A stretch of DNA of 64,000 nucleotides from Escherichia phage fDHCT2, in sequence record OR427838.1, one strand, 5' to 3'. Shown here one piece after another: positions 4,614-60,073 of the stretch (the stretch's first letter is position 1; every line of letters starts with the position of its first letter). The translations under genes were made by a program, and so were the position numbers. The notes beneath the pieces are model-generated. The model was given only the letters and a program-made list of their open reading frames with translations. It searched no databases and was not told the DNA's origin.

Positions 4614-4655
4614 AATTTTTCTCTCTTGGTTAAAGGTTTATAATCCATGAGAGCC

Positions 4656-4684
4656 ATTATAACATGGCTCTCGATAAAGTAAAC
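4656..4684 (-). promoter_or_regulatory. T4-type early promoter
   Basis: minus GTTTAC (4679-4684), 17 nt, TATAAT (4656-4661); -10 in loop of GAGAGCCA/TGGCTCTC repeat. Confidence 0.65.
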
Positions 4685-5238: not shown

Positions 5239-5744
5239 ATTGTTCTCAATTCAATAAAATCTACGAGTTCGGCATAGGATTTGCGGAACATTACTTGGCG
5301 GTCACCAATGACAACCTCATCTTCAGGTATTTCGTAAACAGCAAGATAGAATCCTTTAGAAGATAATTCTTCACGCTCTTCACGAGTGAACCAGCGCATC
5401 ATATCATACTCGCTGGCAAAAGCAAAATGGTAGAGATTAACAAACCAACCTGGAATATAATCATCACAGCCTTCATAATCAGGCTGGTTCCACTTAGTTC
5501 TAATGCTTTTATTAGAATTTTCCACCAACAAATTGTCTTGACCGGGTAGCGGAATATTTTTATTATTGGTATGGTGGTGCCTAAAATTGGGTCTGTCGAA
5601 ACCTACTTCCAATAACCAGCCTTCACTCCATTCGTCAAATGAGCCTCTATACGGTGTTAATTGGCGGCACTGTAGGTGGGTGATTGCTATGACATCGCTG
5701 TTATCTAAGATACTAAACGATGACTCAACTCGATAAATTTTCAT
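5235..5744 (-). CDS. hypothetical protein
   Basis: 169-aa ORF, RBS GAGGAG. Confidence 0.55.
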   Translation of the reverse strand: MKIYRVESSFSILDNSDVIAITHLQCRQLTPYRGSFDEWSEGWLLEVGFDRPNFRHHHTNNKNIPLPGQDNLLVENSNKSIRTKWNQPDYEGCDDYIPGWFVNLYHFAFASEYDMMRWFTREEREELSSKGFYLAVYEIPEDEVVIGDRQVMFRKSYAELVDFIELRTI

Positions 5745-5771
5745 TTTGTTCTCCTCATGTTGATAGGGTAG

Positions 5772-5800
5772 ATAATATCATGTCATGAGGAGAAGTAAAC
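5772..5800 (-). promoter_or_regulatory. T4-type early promoter
   Basis: minus GTTTAC (5795-5800), 17 nt, TATTAT (5772-5777), CTATCAAC; flanked by CTCCTCATG/CATGAGGAG repeat. Confidence 0.65.
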
Positions 5801-5804
5801 ACTT

Positions 5805-6479
5805 TTATCGATTTTTTACACTTAACGGGTCAGGATTCTCAGGGACATCTTCCAGGCCCAAGGCATAACGTTGAGCATATTTCAGCATCAAGATGTCCTT
5901 GGCACAGTCATGGATAGAGTCATGAGCAACAAAGCCATTCAATGTTCCGTTAGGCAGAGGACACATGCTCAATCCGCGAGTCAGTGAATAGGCTTCGATA
6001 GCCGTACGGATATCACGTTGGTTCCAGAATTTAACCGGTTCTAATTTACTGGTATCAATTTCATTCTCAGGAACACCTTCAGAACGATAAGCATCGCGAA
6101 TAAGGTCGACTAAGATAGGAAAGTCAAATGACATTCCACGACACCACATCTGTGATTTCCACTGGTCTACATCATTTTTACGGCAATATTCTAAGAAGTT
6201 GCCGATGCCGATAGAAGTGCTCACATCCATTTCGGACGGCGCCAGGTTTTTACGTGCTTCGGGCCCTTGTTCTTTCCACCACTGTAAAGTGCTTTTAGAA
6301 AACAGTCGTTTATCACGTTGAGAAGCTAGGTCAAATTTAATACGAAGGCCTCGTTGAGTAAGCTCTTCAAACGTTTCTACTACCTCTGGATTTGGGTCGT
6401 AAGCAATTACGGCTAGGTCAATAACCGCCGCATTTTGGGTAGTGGCAAAGGTTTCGAAGTCAATAATTACATCTTTCAT
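5805..6479 (-). CDS. dexA: exonuclease A (DEDD 3'-5' exonuclease)
   Basis: 224 aa; MKDVIIDFETF... exonuclease motif; T4 position upstream of dda. Confidence 0.85.
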   Translation of the reverse strand: MKDVIIDFETFATTQNAAVIDLAVIAYDPNPEVVETFEELTQRGLRIKFDLASQRDKRLFSKSTLQWWKEQGPEARKNLAPSEMDVSTSIGIGNFLEYCRKNDVDQWKSQMWCRGMSFDFPILVDLIRDAYRSEGVPENEIDTSKLEPVKFWNQRDIRTAIEAYSLTRGLSMCPLPNGTLNGFVAHDSIHDCAKDILMLKYAQRYALGLEDVPENPDPLSVKNR

Positions 6480-10463: not shown

Positions 10464-10487
10464 ATGACCTCCAGTGATTTAGAGGTC

Positions 10488-10516
10488 ATTATAACATGAA
10501 GGGAGGAGGTGTAAAA
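10488..10516 (-). promoter_or_regulatory. T4-type early promoter with RBS-sequestering repeat
   Basis: minus TTTTAC (10511-10516), 17 nt, TATAAT (10488-10493); repeat ATGACCTC/GAGGTCAT (10464-10489) covers the SD. Confidence 0.6.
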
Positions 10517-12143: not shown

Positions 12144-12170
12144 CCAAAAAAGGAACCCGAAGGTTCCTTA
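12144..12170 (-). terminator. intrinsic terminator downstream of soc
   Basis: minus AAGGAACC-TTCG-GGTTCCTTTTTTGG. Confidence 0.7.
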
Positions 12171-15621: not shown

Positions 15622-15649
15622 TTCAATCTCCTCGTTAGTTGATAGGTCT

Positions 15650-15679
15650 ATAGTATCACCACCATAGACCGTTGTAAAC
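15650..15679 (-). promoter_or_regulatory. T4-type early promoter (sp)
   Basis: minus GTTTAC (15674-15679), 18 nt, TGATACTAT, AGACCTATCAAC. Confidence 0.65.
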
Positions 15680-16460: not shown

Positions 16461-16778
16461 TTAGATTTCCTCGCAGAAGGCCCATTCAGCATGATAAACC
16501 GTAGCGCCTTTAGTATCATTTAAACAAACCACATCCACCGGAGCAATTACACGATAAAGACGAGGTTCTCCTCCCACCGAACGAGCAGCTCGTCCAGCAT
16601 AAATCTTAGCCAAACCAATGTCCTCAGTAAAGAACACACGATTCAAGTTTTTCTTACGACCCGTTTCAGACAGAACTCCTGTTTCCTCAGGAGGACAAAG
16701 CATATTACCAATATTAGCAACACTACAACTTCCATGGTAATACACTTTATATTCCGCTTTACAGTCGATGGTTTTCAT
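16461..16778 (-). CDS. hypothetical protein
   Basis: track start 16790 is TTG; ATG 16778 with RBS GGAGAACAAA; motifs YYHGS and RLYRV. Confidence 0.5.
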   Translation of the reverse strand: MKTIDCKAEYKVYYHGSCSVANIGNMLCPPEETGVLSETGRKKNLNRVFFTEDIGLAKIYAGRAARSVGGEPRLYRVIAPVDVVCLNDTKGATVYHAEWAFCEEI

Positions 16779-16802
16779 TTTGTTCTCCAAGTTGATAGGT
16801 CC

Positions 16803-16831
16803 ATAGTATCATGCCTACAGGAGAAGTAAAC
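16803..16831 (-). promoter_or_regulatory. T4-type early promoter
   Basis: minus GTTTAC (16826-16831), 17 nt, TGATACTAT, GGACCTATCAAC. Confidence 0.65.
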
Positions 16832-16840
16832 CATTAAAAC

Positions 16841-16862
16841 AAAAAAGGAGCCGAAGCTCCTT
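16841..16862 (-). terminator. intrinsic terminator downstream of gene 41
   Basis: minus AGGAGC-TTCG-GCTCCTTTTTTG; overlaps gp41 stop. Confidence 0.7.
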
Positions 16863-37406: not shown

Positions 37407-37445
37407 AATAATTTCCTCAGTTTAAAATTTATAATCCATGGGACC

Positions 37446-37475
37446 ATTATACTCGGGTCCCAAGAGTTTGTAAAC
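37446..37475 (-). promoter_or_regulatory. T4-type early promoter
   Basis: minus GTTTAC (37470-37475), 18 nt, GAGTATAAT; -10 in loop of GGGACC/GGTCCC repeat. Confidence 0.6.
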
Positions 37476-38365: not shown

Positions 38366-38544
38366 AATTTAATTTCCTTGGCTATCGAACAAAACAAACT
38401 ACGGTCACATACCATCATTGGAATATTTCTATGGTCCAGTACACGATACCATACGTCTGAATCGCTAGCAGCAATTACACGAACCGCACGCCCGTTTACC
38501 AAATAATACTGGTCGGCTTTAATTTCTTTATCTTGGATAGTCAT
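38362..38544 (-). CDS. hypothetical small protein
   Basis: 60-aa ORF behind early promoter. Confidence 0.45.
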   Translation of the reverse strand: MTIQDKEIKADQYYLVNGRAVRVIAASDSDVWYRVLDHRNIPMMVCDRSLFCSIAKEIKL

Positions 38545-38573
38545 AATGTTCTCCTCATGTGTTGATAGGATAG

Positions 38574-38602
38574 ACTATAACACGTGAGGAGAGGAAGTAA
38601 AC
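38574..38602 (-). promoter_or_regulatory. T4-type early promoter
   Basis: minus GTTTAC (38597-38602), 17 nt, TATAGT, CTATCCTATCAAC; flanked by CTCCTCATGTG/CACGTGAGGAG repeat. Confidence 0.6.
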
Positions 38603-44816: not shown

Positions 44817-45341
44817 TTATGCGAGAACCGTCTTTAAACGCTCTTCAAATTTCTGAAGCAGAGCTTGGCGTTCAGCTCGTTGTGATTTGTACTGCTCGAT
44901 ACGACCTGAAGTGAGGGCGTACTGTTCGTTTACTGATTCCCGCATGAATTCAGGAATCTCTTTACAAGCTTTGATTTCGTCAAACTTATCAATAACAGCT
45001 TGTTGTTCAGCAATCAGATTATCGAAATAAGCGATATCAGATTTAACGTTTGCCAGGTCGGATTCAGTAGGCATTAAACGTTTGTTACGTTCAGCTTGAT
45101 AAGCTTGATTGTTTTCACGACTCCAGTGAAGAGTACGTTTTTTGTTAGTGTTTTTATAGAGCTCTACAATACCAACTGAATCGATGACTGCAATCCAGTT
45201 CCAATGGCTTTTGTAAATCTCTCCTCCAGATACGGTAATCTCATTACCACAAGCAACATCGTTAAAGAACTTGCTTTGTTTTTCAGATTTGAAATTACCG
45301 TTGTTGAAATTAATCAGTGAAAAAATATCTTTAGCGTTCAT
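44817..45341 (-). CDS. hypothetical protein
   Basis: 174-aa ORF. Confidence 0.55.
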   Translation of the reverse strand: MNAKDIFSLINFNNGNFKSEKQSKFFNDVACGNEITVSGGEIYKSHWNWIAVIDSVGIVELYKNTNKKRTLHWSRENNQAYQAERNKRLMPTESDLANVKSDIAYFDNLIAEQQAVIDKFDEIKACKEIPEFMRESVNEQYALTSGRIEQYKSQRAERQALLQKFEERLKTVLA

Positions 45342-45367
45342 GATAACCTCCAGTAGTTGATAGGTCT

Positions 45368-45396
45368 ATAGTATCATTTCTACTGGAGATGTAAAC
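45368..45396 (-). promoter_or_regulatory. T4-type early promoter
   Basis: minus GTTTAC (45391-45396), 17 nt, TGATACTAT, AGACCTATCAAC; flanked by CCTCCAGTAG/CTACTGGAG repeat. Confidence 0.65.
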
Positions 45397-46812: not shown

Positions 46813-46840
46813 ACCCAAAAAAGGACCCCGAAGGGTCCTA
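46813..46840 (-). terminator. intrinsic terminator
   Basis: minus AGGACCC-TTCG-GGGTCCTTTTTTGGG. Confidence 0.65.
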
Positions 46841-50029: not shown

Positions 50030-50058
50030 ATAGTATCACGTTCCTAGAGGATGTAAAT
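50030..50058 (-). promoter_or_regulatory. T4-type early promoter
   Basis: minus ATTTAC (50053-50058), 17 nt, TGATACTAT, AGACCTATCAAC. Confidence 0.6.
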
Positions 50059-50065
50059 ACCTAAA

Positions 50066-50096
50066 CGAAAAAAGGTCCCACCGAAGTGAGACCTTT
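50066..50096 (-). terminator. intrinsic terminator
   Basis: minus GGTCTCAC-TTCG-GTGGGACC (one G-U pair) then TTTTTTCG. Confidence 0.7.
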
Positions 50097-53473: not shown

Positions 53474-53932
53474 TTAAAGATAGATTACTTTCGTGCTGGT
53501 TTTACCTTCTAAACGTTTAGAGTTAACAAATGCCATACGACATTTTAATGAATATCCTTTATCAGGATGTTTACGATCTACGGTCATACCTAGCCATAAG
53601 GTTTTATCGGTAATTTCGAGACGCAATGGACGATACACTTTACCAGGGACAATTTCGGATTCTACATCAGGCAGAGGTTCCTGGATTAAGAATTCATGGA
53701 TTTCTTTAACATGGTTATGGAGTTGCTTGAATAAAGCAAAAACGTATTTTTCGTCGATTTCACGTTGGATAGCACGGTCCAACAAGTGATTAGAGTACTT
53801 AATAAAGAAAGCTGGGACACCGCTCTTGATGGCGGCTTTTTTGATGGACGCGTTAAGTTCACGAAATTCGGTTTCGAACTGACGACGTAATTTGTTGCGG
53901 CGGATGAATACTTCTGAATTAATTTCTGACAT
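53474..53932 (-). CDS. regB: endoribonuclease RegB
   Basis: start at MSEINSEVFIRRNKLRR (53932, RBS AGGAGA); collinear with remembered T4 RegB. Confidence 0.9.
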   Translation of the reverse strand: MSEINSEVFIRRNKLRRQFETEFRELNASIKKAAIKSGVPAFFIKYSNHLLDRAIQREIDEKYVFALFKQLHNHVKEIHEFLIQEPLPDVESEIVPGKVYRPLRLEITDKTLWLGMTVDRKHPDKGYSLKCRMAFVNSKRLEGKTSTKVIYL

Positions 53933-53960
53933 TTTGTAATCTCCTGTAGTTGATAGGTTT

Positions 53961-53989
53961 ATAGTATCATGTCTACAGGAGATGTAAAC
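53961..53989 (-). promoter_or_regulatory. T4-type early promoter (regB) with RBS-sequestering repeat
   Basis: minus GTTTAC (53984-53989), 17 nt, TGATACTAT, AAACCTATCAAC; perfect 11-bp repeat ATCTCCTGTAG (53939-53949) / CTACAGGAGAT (53973-53983). Confidence 0.7.
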
Positions 53990-55784: not shown

Positions 55785-55814
55785 ATTCTACCACGGATTT
55801 AATTAAGCGTAAAT
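55785..55814 (-). promoter_or_regulatory. T4-type early promoter
   Basis: minus ATTTAC (55809-55814), 18 nt, TAGAAT, ACTTCTATCAAC. Confidence 0.55.
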
Positions 55815-56219
55815 AGCCTTGCCATAGTGTTTGTACCAGGTAGGACGTTGTGCAATTTTTTCATCCAAACGGGCTTGTGAAATAGCGATAGAAGCTTCGT
55901 GAGGAACATAATCACCACGGAATTCCTGAGGAATATCACTAATGTCCTGGACTGTAGTATCCTTGATATTAAAGCCACGTTTTAAACATTCGGTTATAAG
56001 CTCGATTTGACGCTTACGTAAAAATTCAAGCTTATCGTAAAAGAATGTAACATGGCCTGTACCAAGGATAAAAGTAGGGCTGATTTTAAAATCACGAACG
56101 CGTTTACCGTTAGCAACATGCTTACGAACTGCACCGAAAACACGTGGTAATTCACGATATTCAGCCATTAAGTGTTGGTCAGCCAATTCAGATACTAAGG
56201 TAAGGTTGATACGAGTCAT
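55803..56219 (-). CDS. denV: endonuclease V (pyrimidine dimer glycosylase) DenV
   Basis: 138 aa; [34 protein letters not shown]... near-identical to remembered T4 DenV. Confidence 0.97.
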
Positions 56220-56248
56220 TTTAGTGTTCTCCGTGTTTGTATGAGAAC

Positions 56249-56277
56249 ACTATATCACAGCTATCGTAAAAGTAAAC
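56249..56277 (-). promoter_or_regulatory. T4-type early promoter (denV)
   Basis: minus GTTTAC (56272-56277), 17 nt, TGATATAGT; GTTCTC/GAGAAC repeat covers SD GGAGAAC. Confidence 0.6.
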
Positions 56278-57306: not shown

Positions 57307-57795
57307 TTATCTATAAGCAGCCCAAGTACCTGTTTTAAATGTTGAAATCACGCGCTTAGCACGATTAGGAGTTTGTTTATACCAACGGGATTGAGCCAGG
57401 TTAACTGCGGCATCATCCCAACGTTTCTGTTGGAGCATACGCAGAGAGTTGGTAAATCCTGCTACACCAGCTTCGCCCATTTGGAAGACCATGTTAATTA
57501 AAGCACAACGACGAACTTCGTCCAGCACATCATAAACAGGTTTCAATTTAGGATTACGCAGAATAGCTCTACGAGCATTATCAACCGACCGGTTAAAGAG
57601 TTGTTCTGCTTCAGCCATAGTAATACGACCATTACAAACTCGACCCATAAGCTTATCAAGTTCAGCGCGGGCAACATCTTTAGATGGGTTCTTGGTAACT
57701 AACTGGCCAATACCAATAGTCCAATAACCTTCAGTGTCTTTATAAAGATTTAAATCAAGACCTTCGTCTTGACGTAACATATCAAAAATATCCAT
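57307..57795 (-). CDS. e: lysozyme (endolysin) e
   Basis: 162 aa; ...DEGL(D/R)[13 protein letters not shown]...; catalytic Glu/Asp/Thr context conserved with remembered T4 lysozyme. Confidence 0.97.
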
Positions 57796-57797
57796 AA

Positions 57798-57825
57798 TAC
57801 CTCCTGAGTATAGGAGGTATTTATA
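57798..57825 (-). promoter_or_regulatory. late promoter TATAAATA plus RBS-sequestering hairpin of gene e
   Basis: minus TATAAATA (57818-57825); repeat TACCTCCT/AGGAGGTA (57798-57819) pairs SD in transcripts from upstream. Confidence 0.7.
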
Positions 57826-60007: not shown

Positions 60008-60044
60008 TTTATTCTCCATTTCACTCTGTTGTTTTGATAGGTCT

Positions 60045-60073
60045 ATAGTATCACACCTATAGACCTTGTACAC
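60045..60073 (-). promoter_or_regulatory. T4-type early promoter; -10 inside a 10-bp palindrome
   Basis: minus GTGTAC (60068-60073), 17 nt, TGATACTAT; AGGTCTATAG/CTATAGACCT (60039-60066). Confidence 0.55.

Follow-up and report, generated by a model that had tools for sequence, protein, structure and literature searches.

The 64,000-nt stretch of Escherichia phage fDHCT2 DNA analysed here (OR427838.1; the window) carries inverted repeats that are embedded in the promoters of early genes, among them regB, the gene of the endoribonuclease RegB. In a subset of these genes, a sequence complementary to the Shine-Dalgarno (SD) sequence lies within the gene's own early promoter. This anti-SD would insulate the gene by silencing translation of RNA that reads through from upstream, and it would probably keep RegB from cleaving that RNA. 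We give this reading a probability of about 0.65.

The regB coding sequence (53474-53932, minus strand) encodes 152 amino acids that are 57% identical to T4 RegB, and related phages annotate the gene as regB or endoribonuclease. The genes in this part of the window lie on the minus strand, as do all features described below. A 1-kb query around the regB repeat matched T4-like coliphages of the JS98 group (Dhakavirus-type) at ~92-95% identity, and the 24 kb from 40000 to 64000 are ~93% identical to phages of that group. Read on the minus strand, the regB cassette has the order GTTTAC, ATCTCCTGTAG, ACATGA, TACTAT, AAACCT, A (+1), TCAA, CTACAGGAGAT, TACAAA and ATG. The promoter is of the T4 early type, with a −35 element GTTTAC (53984-53989), a 17-nt spacer, a TG-extended −10 element TACTAT (53961-53966) and the conserved CCTATCAAC around the predicted +1, which is the A at 53954. 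The site was also listed by a promoter scan, with the TG before −10. The 5' arm ATCTCCTGTAG (53973-53983) is the anti-SD and lies within the −35/−10 spacer. The 3' arm CTACAGGAGAT (53939-53949) contains the SD, with GGAG at 53941-53944 and the start codon at 53930-53932. The arms form a perfect 11-bp inverted repeat with the −10 element in the hairpin loop, just as the first-pass annotation had described it. RNA begun at this promoter would lack the 5' arm because that arm lies upstream of the predicted +1.

Two RNAs were folded for each cassette, and the probability of an unpaired SD was taken from partition-function folding of both. The read-through RNA ran from 30 nt upstream of the −35 element to AUG+18. 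The promoter-initiated RNA ran from the predicted +1, the seventh base after −10, a position predicted from spacing to the −10 element. At regB the probability of an unpaired SD was 0.00 in the read-through RNA and 0.66 in the promoter-initiated RNA. The local hairpin had a folding free energy (dG) of −18.3 kcal/mol, and none of 1000 shuffles of the spacer reached 11 bp. The GGAG of the regB SD is single-stranded in the promoter-initiated fold, as is expected of a site for RegB autoregulation. A scan for intrinsic terminators between the upstream promoter at 55813 and regB returned only one weak intragenic match. The 5' arm starts 11 nt past the stop codon of the upstream open reading frame (ORF), and the footprint of a terminating ribosome probably ends short of that distance. 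Translational coupling of regB to the upstream ORF was therefore judged unlikely.

To count such cassettes, we searched the minus strand of the window for TTTAC (or TGTAC), 16-18 nt and TAnnnT and kept the matches that had an SD and an ORF of 40 codons or more within the next 60 nt. The census yielded 23 early promoter-gene cassettes. The masked layout (class 1) was found in 6 to 7 of them, namely regB, motB.2, 55.6-like, nrdC.8-like, modA-like, denV and, weakly, orf105. The masked cassettes share the promoter geometry GTTTAC, N17, TAnnnT with a TG-extended −10 and the predicted +1 at the A of CCTATCAAC. Their 5' arm ends before the predicted +1 and their 3' arm covers GGAG or GAGG; motifs and spacing place the predicted +1 after the 5' arm at every masked site. 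Weaker cases of masking were seen at 50057 and imm (25038), and the remaining cassettes are unmasked. The broader proposal of the first-pass annotation, that early promoters are embedded in SD-masking repeats, thus holds for 6 to 7 of 23; the rest are unmasked, and a second class of palindromes (class 2) brackets the −10 element and leaves the SD free. Since only this fraction has it, masking is a feature of a subset and not a general rule.

Folding of both 5' ends, a check proposed by the first-pass annotation, separated the two RNAs clearly. At six sites the SD was unpaired with a probability of 0.00-0.03 in read-through RNA and 0.47-0.74 in promoter-initiated RNA; at denV the values were 0.23 and 0.38. 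Compared with dinucleotide shuffles, the read-through RNAs gave z = −2.4 to −5.9 (five of the six sites and denV), and the short promoter-initiated leaders were unstructured (dG 0 to −2.3 kcal/mol). A perfect stem of at least 8 bp between the pre-start region and the segment from +1 to AUG occurred in 6/23 cassettes, whereas 1.04 would be expected from random re-pairing of 5' halves with the 3' halves of other cassettes (P = 5e-5). When the spacer alone was shuffled, P was at most 0.001 for regB, motB.2 and nrdC.8-like, and it was 0.02 for 55.6-like.

The strongest line of evidence for the putative masking of the SD is covariation across phages. regB loci were taken from IMG/VR and their upstream regions were inspected. 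A hairpin spanning −10 was present in every lineage, with differing arms, and 15 lineage representatives held at least nine different arm sequences. The JS98 group has the 11-bp pair ATCTCCTGTAG / CTACAGGAGAT of the window. The other arms are ATCTCCTTTTAGT / ACTAAAAGGAGAT (L026 group, 13 bp), TTTCTCCTCTTTATG / CATAAAGAGGAGAAA (L042, 15 bp), ATCCTCATTTG / CAAATGAGGAT (L043, 11 bp), TTCTCCTCTAGTTG / CAACTAGAGGAGAA (L045 group, 14 bp), CTCCTCTTG / CAAGAGGAG (L049, 9 bp), TCTCCTGTAAG / CTTACAGGAGA (L060/L061, 11 bp), CCTCCTTT / AAAGGAGG (L041, 8 bp) and, in T4, TCCTCTTGACTG / CAGTTAAGAGGA (12 bp with one G.U pair). Two lineages have alternative solutions: the L035 stem joins the −10 region to the AUG and the 3' part of the SD, and that of L058 joins the spacer to codons 2-5. 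With one representative per arm type, the regB stems averaged 8.9 bp, against 5.8 bp in inter-lineage chimeras (permutation P < 5e-5).

Other genes gave the same picture. Among 19 denV representatives the own stems averaged 8.05 bp and the chimeras 5.17 bp (permutation P < 5e-5). The denV SD pairs with pre-start sequence in 32/35 distinct upstream regions, and both layouts occur among the lineages, with the 5' arm either in the spacer or after the −10 element. All ten orthologous motB.2 upstream regions are masked (10/10), those of T4 type with different arms, and T4 nrdC.8 is masked by other arms again (GTTCCTC / GAGGAAC). In T4 coordinates 1-68000, which hold ~20 early cassettes, the SD was masked in seven read-through folds (denV, regB, nrdC.8, nrdC.10, imm.1, modB and motB.2). 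Because T4 has it too, masking is common to T-even-type phages and is not peculiar to the genome of the window. These observations establish that the repeats exist, where they stand relative to the promoter motifs, that the two RNAs fold differently and that complementarity is maintained across phages. The claim that only read-through RNA hides the SD, the 5' arm being upstream of the start, gains support from the geometry of the predicted +1, from folding and from the covarying arms.

The motB.2 cassette (5749-5800) has its −35 element at 5795-5800, the 5' arm TTCTCCTCATG at 5784-5794, the −10 element at 5772-5777 and the 3' arm CATGAGGAGAA at 5749-5759, which pairs with TTCTCCTCATG over 11 bp; the ATG is at 5744. 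The probability of an unpaired SD was 0.00 in read-through and 0.69 in promoter-initiated RNA, and the read-through fold had z = −5.9. Orthology between motB.2 of the window and of T4 is 68%. The same read-through fold (5727-5815) contains an outer 8-bp helix between TCGATAAA upstream of the −35 element and TTTATCGA at codons 3-6, which encloses the entire promoter and the translation initiation region. The 55.6-like cassette (38550-38602) has the arms TCTCCTCACGTGTT (38579-38592) and AACACATGAGGAGA (38550-38563) and an ATG at 38544. Its stem of 14 bp includes one C.A mismatch, and the probabilities for the promoter at 38601 were 0.00 and 0.67. In the relatives L165 and L166 the arms have changed and the pairing is kept. 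The nrdC.8-like cassette (45348-45396; orthology 67%) has 9-bp arms, CTCCAGTAG at 45380-45388 and CTACTGGAG at 45348-45356, and an ATG at 45341; the probabilities for the promoter at 45395 were 0.01 and 0.47. The regB and nrdC.8-like cassettes are near-identical paralogues, and they differ by a compensatory U-A to A-U swap in the stem.

Two further cassettes have the 5' arm nearer to the start site. In the cassette of the modA-like ADP-ribosylase (10464-10516) the 8-bp arms are ATGACCTC (10482-10489), which spans the end of −10 to −1, and GAGGTCAT (10464-10471), which comprises the SD and the AT of the ATG. The probabilities for the promoter at 10515 were 0.00 and 0.69. An alternative spacer arm, ACCTCC at 10505-10510, could pair too, and the arms are retained in L173 despite a differing spacer. 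In the denV cassette (56222-56277, ATG at 56219) the 10-bp arms are TAGTGTTCTC (56243-56252) and GAGAACACTA (56222-56231). The 5' arm overlaps the last 3 nt of −10 and extends to −1. The change for the promoter at 56276 was smaller (0.23 against 0.38, z = −4.5), and the read-through pairing covers three of the four GGAG bases. The first-pass annotation had placed the regB layout at five further sites; the repeats are present at all of them, but at modA-like and denV the 5' arms abut the −10 element and do not bracket it. The orf105 cassette (16783-16831) is weak or eroded. TTCTCC (16820-16825) pairs with GGAGAA (16783-16788), no partner is left for the rest of the regB-type 5' arm (TGTAGG), and an intrinsic terminator stands directly upstream; the probabilities for the promoter at 16830 were 0.03 and 0.74. 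An Arr-like identity of orf105 (16461-16778) was considered and found no Pfam support.

A shorter repeat was also observed inside the early promoters. Its two halves are TGATA in the extended −10 and the complementary TATCA in the +1 motif CCTATCAAC; in every read-through fold they form a 5-bp inner helix that stacks beneath the stem that masks the SD. Examples are at 53955-53970, 45362-45377, 16797-16812 and 15644-15659. The T4 version, TGGTA...TATCA, is able to pair as well, through a G.U pair.

Sequence, folding and comparison are the basis on which the start site is placed, read-through RNA is assumed and consequences for translation and RegB are inferred, and the mechanism would be as follows. 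Between the −35 element and the start site lies a sequence complementary to the SD region 20-25 nt downstream. RNA from the gene's own promoter would start 3' of this anti-SD, have an unstructured leader of ~20 nt and be translatable; where its GGAG is followed by an A-rich run, it would also be open to cutting by RegB. Read-through RNA would contain both arms and form a hairpin of 8-14 bp (dG −12 to −20 kcal/mol), with −10 in the loop and the SD buried, so that the gene would be untranslated and its GGAG shielded from RegB. No intrinsic terminator was found directly upstream of the masked promoters at 6/7 sites. RegB needs its GGAG to be single-stranded, with an A-rich run after it, and structure inhibits the enzyme (PMC1702504); a hairpin would therefore protect read-through RNA from it. 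For T4 denV and mobD.5, primer-extension stops at proximal promoters have been reported (PMC1702504). Expression would be limited to the firing of the gene's own early promoter in the first minutes of infection, regardless of upstream transcription. In T4 the early promoters are off at ~2-3 min, while elongation carries early transcripts on into the genes downstream (PMC2988021); synthesis would therefore be confined by the device to the immediate-early burst. Insulation would also move along with the cassette when promoters swap genes, because both arms lie in one unit of ~50 bp from −35 to SD. An untranslated gene on read-through RNA would be exposed to Rho. This exposure could provide a link to the attenuation reported for a stem-loop of phage RB49 (see below) and to the boundary that separates immediate-early from delayed-early genes, whose sensitivity to Rho has been discussed (PMC2988021).

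Several observations weigh against this reading. Some orthologues (regB in L025/L028/L030 and nrdC.8 in L077-L079) carry the −10 palindrome alone and have a free SD; since these palindromes stand at orthologous positions, another force may also select hairpins there. Masking fails to explain the class-2 palindromes, because they leave the SD untouched, and they imply that it may not be the sole selective force. About 16 of the 23 early promoters are without masking, so the phage has no general need of it. G.U and A.C mismatches in sense orientation, counted to tell selection on RNA from selection on DNA, stood at 3:4 and 3:3 under two scoring schemes and favoured neither. Part of the covariation among orthologues may be due to replacement of whole cassettes and not to stepwise compensation. 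The leaders are just ~20 nt long, and a 3' arm downstream of +1 therefore tends to overlap the SD anyway. The 5' arms of modA-like and denV reach to −1, and a start 2-3 nt further upstream would retain part of them. Finally, in the window and T4 masking was not significantly associated with a missing upstream terminator (2/14 versus 7/29, p = 0.69), and the idea that masking substitutes for an upstream terminator was rejected.

An alternative is that the stem-loops are the terminator or attenuator part of promoter-early stem-loop (PeSL) cassettes and curb upstream transcription, their overlap with the SD being incidental. PeSL cassettes have been described in RB49/phi1, T4/PST and nt-1/KVP40 (Arbiol 2010, PMC2839356; Comeau 2014, PMC4122927, as far as the accessible text of these papers goes). 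Their anatomy fits well, with an AT-rich region, a sigma-70-like promoter, a stem-loop by −35/−10, an SD and an ATG, located in plastic regions. In addition, one RB49 stem-loop cut lacZ expression like a strong terminator, and class-2 palindromes that lie off the SD exist and covary too. However, no T-run follows any class-1 or class-2 stem, the sequences after the 3' arms (e.g. TACAAAATG and ACAAAATG) are without a U-tract, and the terminator scan called none of them. True terminators, with a UUCG tetraloop and T6, stand separately before five promoters, and the stems here are AT-rich, unlike the G-run/C-run stems of RB49. This alternative also leaves unexplained why the 3' arm tracks the SD or AUG in more than 25 arm variants, and likewise the solutions in L035 and L058. 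An intrinsic terminator in the sense of a GC-rich hairpin with a U-tract was therefore rejected, and we consider the alternative as a whole unlikely. Indirect attenuation through untranslated RNA and Rho is compatible with insulation by the anti-SD and is not its rival.

The repeats could also act on DNA, as palindromes for recombination or mobility or as cruciforms or structural tuning of the promoter, with no function in RNA. Cassettes have clearly been exchanged between genes and phages. The regB cassette of the window (53939-53989) is ~90% identical to the denV cassette of T4 (T4 65355-65412, L001) and to that of some JS98-type phages (L082/L083/L086/L120), the cassette at denV of the window is unrelated and differs in its hairpin layout, and the T4 motB cassette stands before orf109 in the window. 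The absence of strand bias in the mismatch count and the centring of class-2 palindromes on −10 would fit an action on DNA as well. Exchange between direct copies by homology, on the other hand, requires no internal inverted repeat. The loops of the spacer-type class-1 repeats are 15-24 nt long and poor for cruciform extrusion, for which compact designs exist, and the 3' arm coincides with a translation signal of the coding strand. Because the arms differ between promoters there is no shared protein-binding site, and a common operator palindrome was rejected. We regard a role in DNA alone as quite improbable.

We give similarly little credence to the possibility that the hairpin is mainly a device for RNA stability or processing, which would shield GGAG from RegB, provide upstream fragments with a 3' stem and let long delayed-early or middle transcripts survive, with silencing being secondary. 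The substrate preference of RegB described above suits this idea. By our own count GGAG is present in 7/7 masked and 8/16 unmasked SDs; several masked sites fit the consensus GGAGRAYARAA, and motB.2 and orf105 match it exactly (GGAGAACAAAA). Yet the hairpin is present at T4 denV, where the GGAG resists RegB for reasons of sequence, and the arms of L035 and L058 pair with the AUG or early codons and not with GGAG, which suggests that the initiation region is what they target. Silencing by the anti-SD and this explanation are largely compatible. A mere compositional origin of the repeats, from the encounter of a spacer consensus rich in CTCC with a GGAG SD, is very improbable: TCTCC does occur in the spacer without an extended 3' arm in several cassettes (57301, 16830) and chimeric pairings still average ~5 bp, but composition alone gives only these ~5 bp and not the covarying extensions, which run 4-10 bp past the CTCC/GGAG core, and own pairings exceed chimeric ones in three independent sets (P 5e-5 or less).

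The class of mechanism is already known from e, soc, 49, I-TevI and mobE. In T4 gene e (lysozyme) a hairpin in the initiation region with an internal promoter has been validated experimentally, long e transcripts are translationally silent by ~100-fold, and T4 soc, 49 and I-TevI are further precedents for a sequestered initiation region (PMC3014915). The arrangement at gene e, as the first-pass annotation had noted, is conserved in the window (57796-57825). A late promoter TATAAATA (57818-57825) precedes a hairpin at 57796-57821, formed by AATACCTCCT (57812-57821) and AGGAGGTATT (57796-57805), and the ATG is at 57793-57795. Its dG is −13.1 kcal/mol, against −12 to −20 kcal/mol for the isolated masking hairpins, and the T4 counterpart folds alike. 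As in gene e (also soc, 49, I-TevI and Aeh1 mobE), the 3' arm sequesters the initiation region in seven early cassettes of the window, lying over the SD or AUG, and transcripts of the internal promoter would lack the 5' arm. In the gene e group, however, the internal promoter is late or middle and delays expression, whereas the masked promoters here are sigma-70 early promoters (GTTTAC-N17-TAnnnT with TG), which would confine expression to the earliest minutes; TATAAATA occurs at gene e alone among the hairpin cassettes compared in the window. The anti-SD in the window lies in the −35/−10 spacer or between −10 and +1, unlike in gene e. The gene e layout is also limited to a few special genes, and that of the window is found at a quarter to a third of early promoters.

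By anatomy we file the elements of the window as PeSL-type cassettes, which would work like gene e with the temporal sense inverted. As far as the accessible text of the PeSL papers goes, these cassettes are likewise composites of ~50-100 bp, in which an AT-rich region and an early promoter, whose −35 and −10 elements may flank or overlap a stem-loop, precede an SD and an ATG; they are present in many copies in plastic early regions and are exchanged between genes and phages. All 23 window cassettes are short intergenic units with an AT-rich region upstream of a strong early promoter, an SD and a start codon, 7 class-1 and 4 class-2 stems lie between, over or adjacent to −35 and −10, and exchange between related phages was seen here too. 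The same text takes the stem-loop for a site of recombination that also terminates or attenuates transcription, with attenuator activity reported for one RB49 stem, and draws the SD as a separate downstream element, not as a stem arm. The stems it describes are G-run/C-run in RB49/phi1 and lie just upstream of the promoter in T4/PST, and the hairpins of the window have no U-tracts.

Fold-back inhibition of IS10/Tn10 against external promoters was reportedly described by Davis, Simons and Kleckner in 1985. Transcripts from outside are said to pair a segment with the transposase's ribosome-binding site, and those of the element's own promoter to start downstream of it and be translatable. The likeness is that a mobile unit is insulated from its context, as the cassettes of the window would be; IS10 is an insertion sequence, a single instance and without a temporal programme.

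The first-pass annotation had suggested that the regB copy may be autoregulatory through its GGAG. Autocontrol of RegB by cleavage of its own GGAG SD is in fact published and conserved in T4-related phages (PMC3014915), 35 of which share with the window a GGAG in the regB SD, and it does not need the hairpin. Autocontrol and the masking hairpin involve the same nucleotides, but the former is an established enzymatic cleavage of single-stranded RNA, whereas the hairpin, a cis element distinct from it, would put read-through RNA beyond the reach of ribosome and RegB alike. The regB hairpin would merely restrict autocleavage to promoter-initiated RNA. No Rfam 15 family reached its gathering score in the 64-kb window on either strand, and assignment to a known RNA family was rejected. 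New are the location of the putative anti-SD inside sigma-70 early promoters, its occurrence in a quarter to a third of early cassettes and the covarying complementarity across the subfamily, T4 included. The searchable literature gave no prior account of SD masking embedded in early promoters beyond PeSL and e/soc/49/I-TevI; it does not extend to the older T4 literature, in which an earlier mention is possible.

If insulation by the anti-SD is true, the stem-loops of T4-type early cassettes, so far discussed as terminators and recombination sites, gain a concrete molecular role. Synthesis of the RegB nuclease and of ModA/ModB-type ADP-ribosyltransferases in a brief pulse would be explained despite continuing polymerase traffic from upstream. 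There would be a structural reason for RegB to hit immediate-early transcripts and spare longer ones with the same GGAG, and a tie to Rho, which was observed long ago to restrict transcription between immediate-early and delayed-early genes. The cassette would be a compact natural design for context-independent expression. The same architecture at T4 regB, denV, modB and motB.2 makes the proposal directly testable in T4. A wider proposal, that T-even-type phages use a general self-insulating early cassette in which the promoter spacer doubles as anti-SD, is possible though doubtful. If it were true, a self-insulated gene would depend on its own immediate-early transcript both for translation and for exposure to RegB, and on delayed-early or middle read-through RNA it would be silent and RegB-proof. 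The untranslated stretches could then be the Rho-sensitive sites long postulated between immediate-early and delayed-early genes, the reported attenuator behaviour of PeSL would be explained, and the feature would have been overlooked in T4 at regB, denV, modB, motB.2, nrdC.8 and imm.1.

The second class of palindromes, with the −10 element inside, was found at the three sites given by the first-pass annotation and at a fourth. They are GAGAGCCAT / ATGGCTCTC at the motB promoter (4649-4672), with −10 in the loop and the unpaired SD ~25 nt further on; GGGACC / GGTCCC at the orf109 promoter (37440-37461); AGGTCTATAG / CTATAGACCT at the orf74 promoter (60039-60066); and, as the addition, GGTCTAT / ATAGACC at the orf97 promoter (15645-15670). 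T4 motB has GGGACC / GGTCCC in the same place, and its promoter and the orf109 cassette are almost the same. These palindromes are real and conserved; only −10 is bracketed, and the SD is left free in the folds. In some regB, nrdC.8 and denV lineages class-2 stems occur alone or nested within a short CUCC/GGAG outer helix, which they would help to close.

Upstream of T4 ipII (T4 65718-65798, L001) there is a perfect 14-bp palindrome, TCCTAGAATTGTGA / TCACAATTCTAGGA, with −10 in an 8-nt loop and the SD ~35 nt beyond. The counterpart promoter of the window (57301) has kept the 5' arm ATCTCCTAGAATTGTGA and lost the 3' arm. Downstream of the motB and orf109 palindromes (~4625-4648 and 37420-37440) we found CATGGATTATAAA(C/T), which resembles the late promoter TATAAATA; T4 motB has GTGGAGTATAAAAT at the corresponding place. 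Such an element may be a second, later promoter in the leader.

Five early promoters have an intrinsic terminator 5-20 nt upstream, with UUCG-type tetraloops and T4-T6 runs (50071-50096, 46822-46839, ~16840-16860, ~12145-12165 and ~828-850), so that terminator and promoter meet in a compact junction. Two cassettes behind terminators (16830 and 50057) have eroded anti-SD arms, though the overall association is not significant. At the denV loci of jumbo relatives with genomes of 345-378 kb (L107, L111, L112, L117), the −35 element TTGAC lies inside a terminator-like stem followed by T-runs, e.g. GGGTTGACTTCGGTCAGCCCTTTTTGCTATAAT. In L169 the −35 element TGTACA is in the loop of GGGG...CCCC, followed by TTT. 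The arrangements of the L107 type and of L169 are a different fusion of terminator and promoter.

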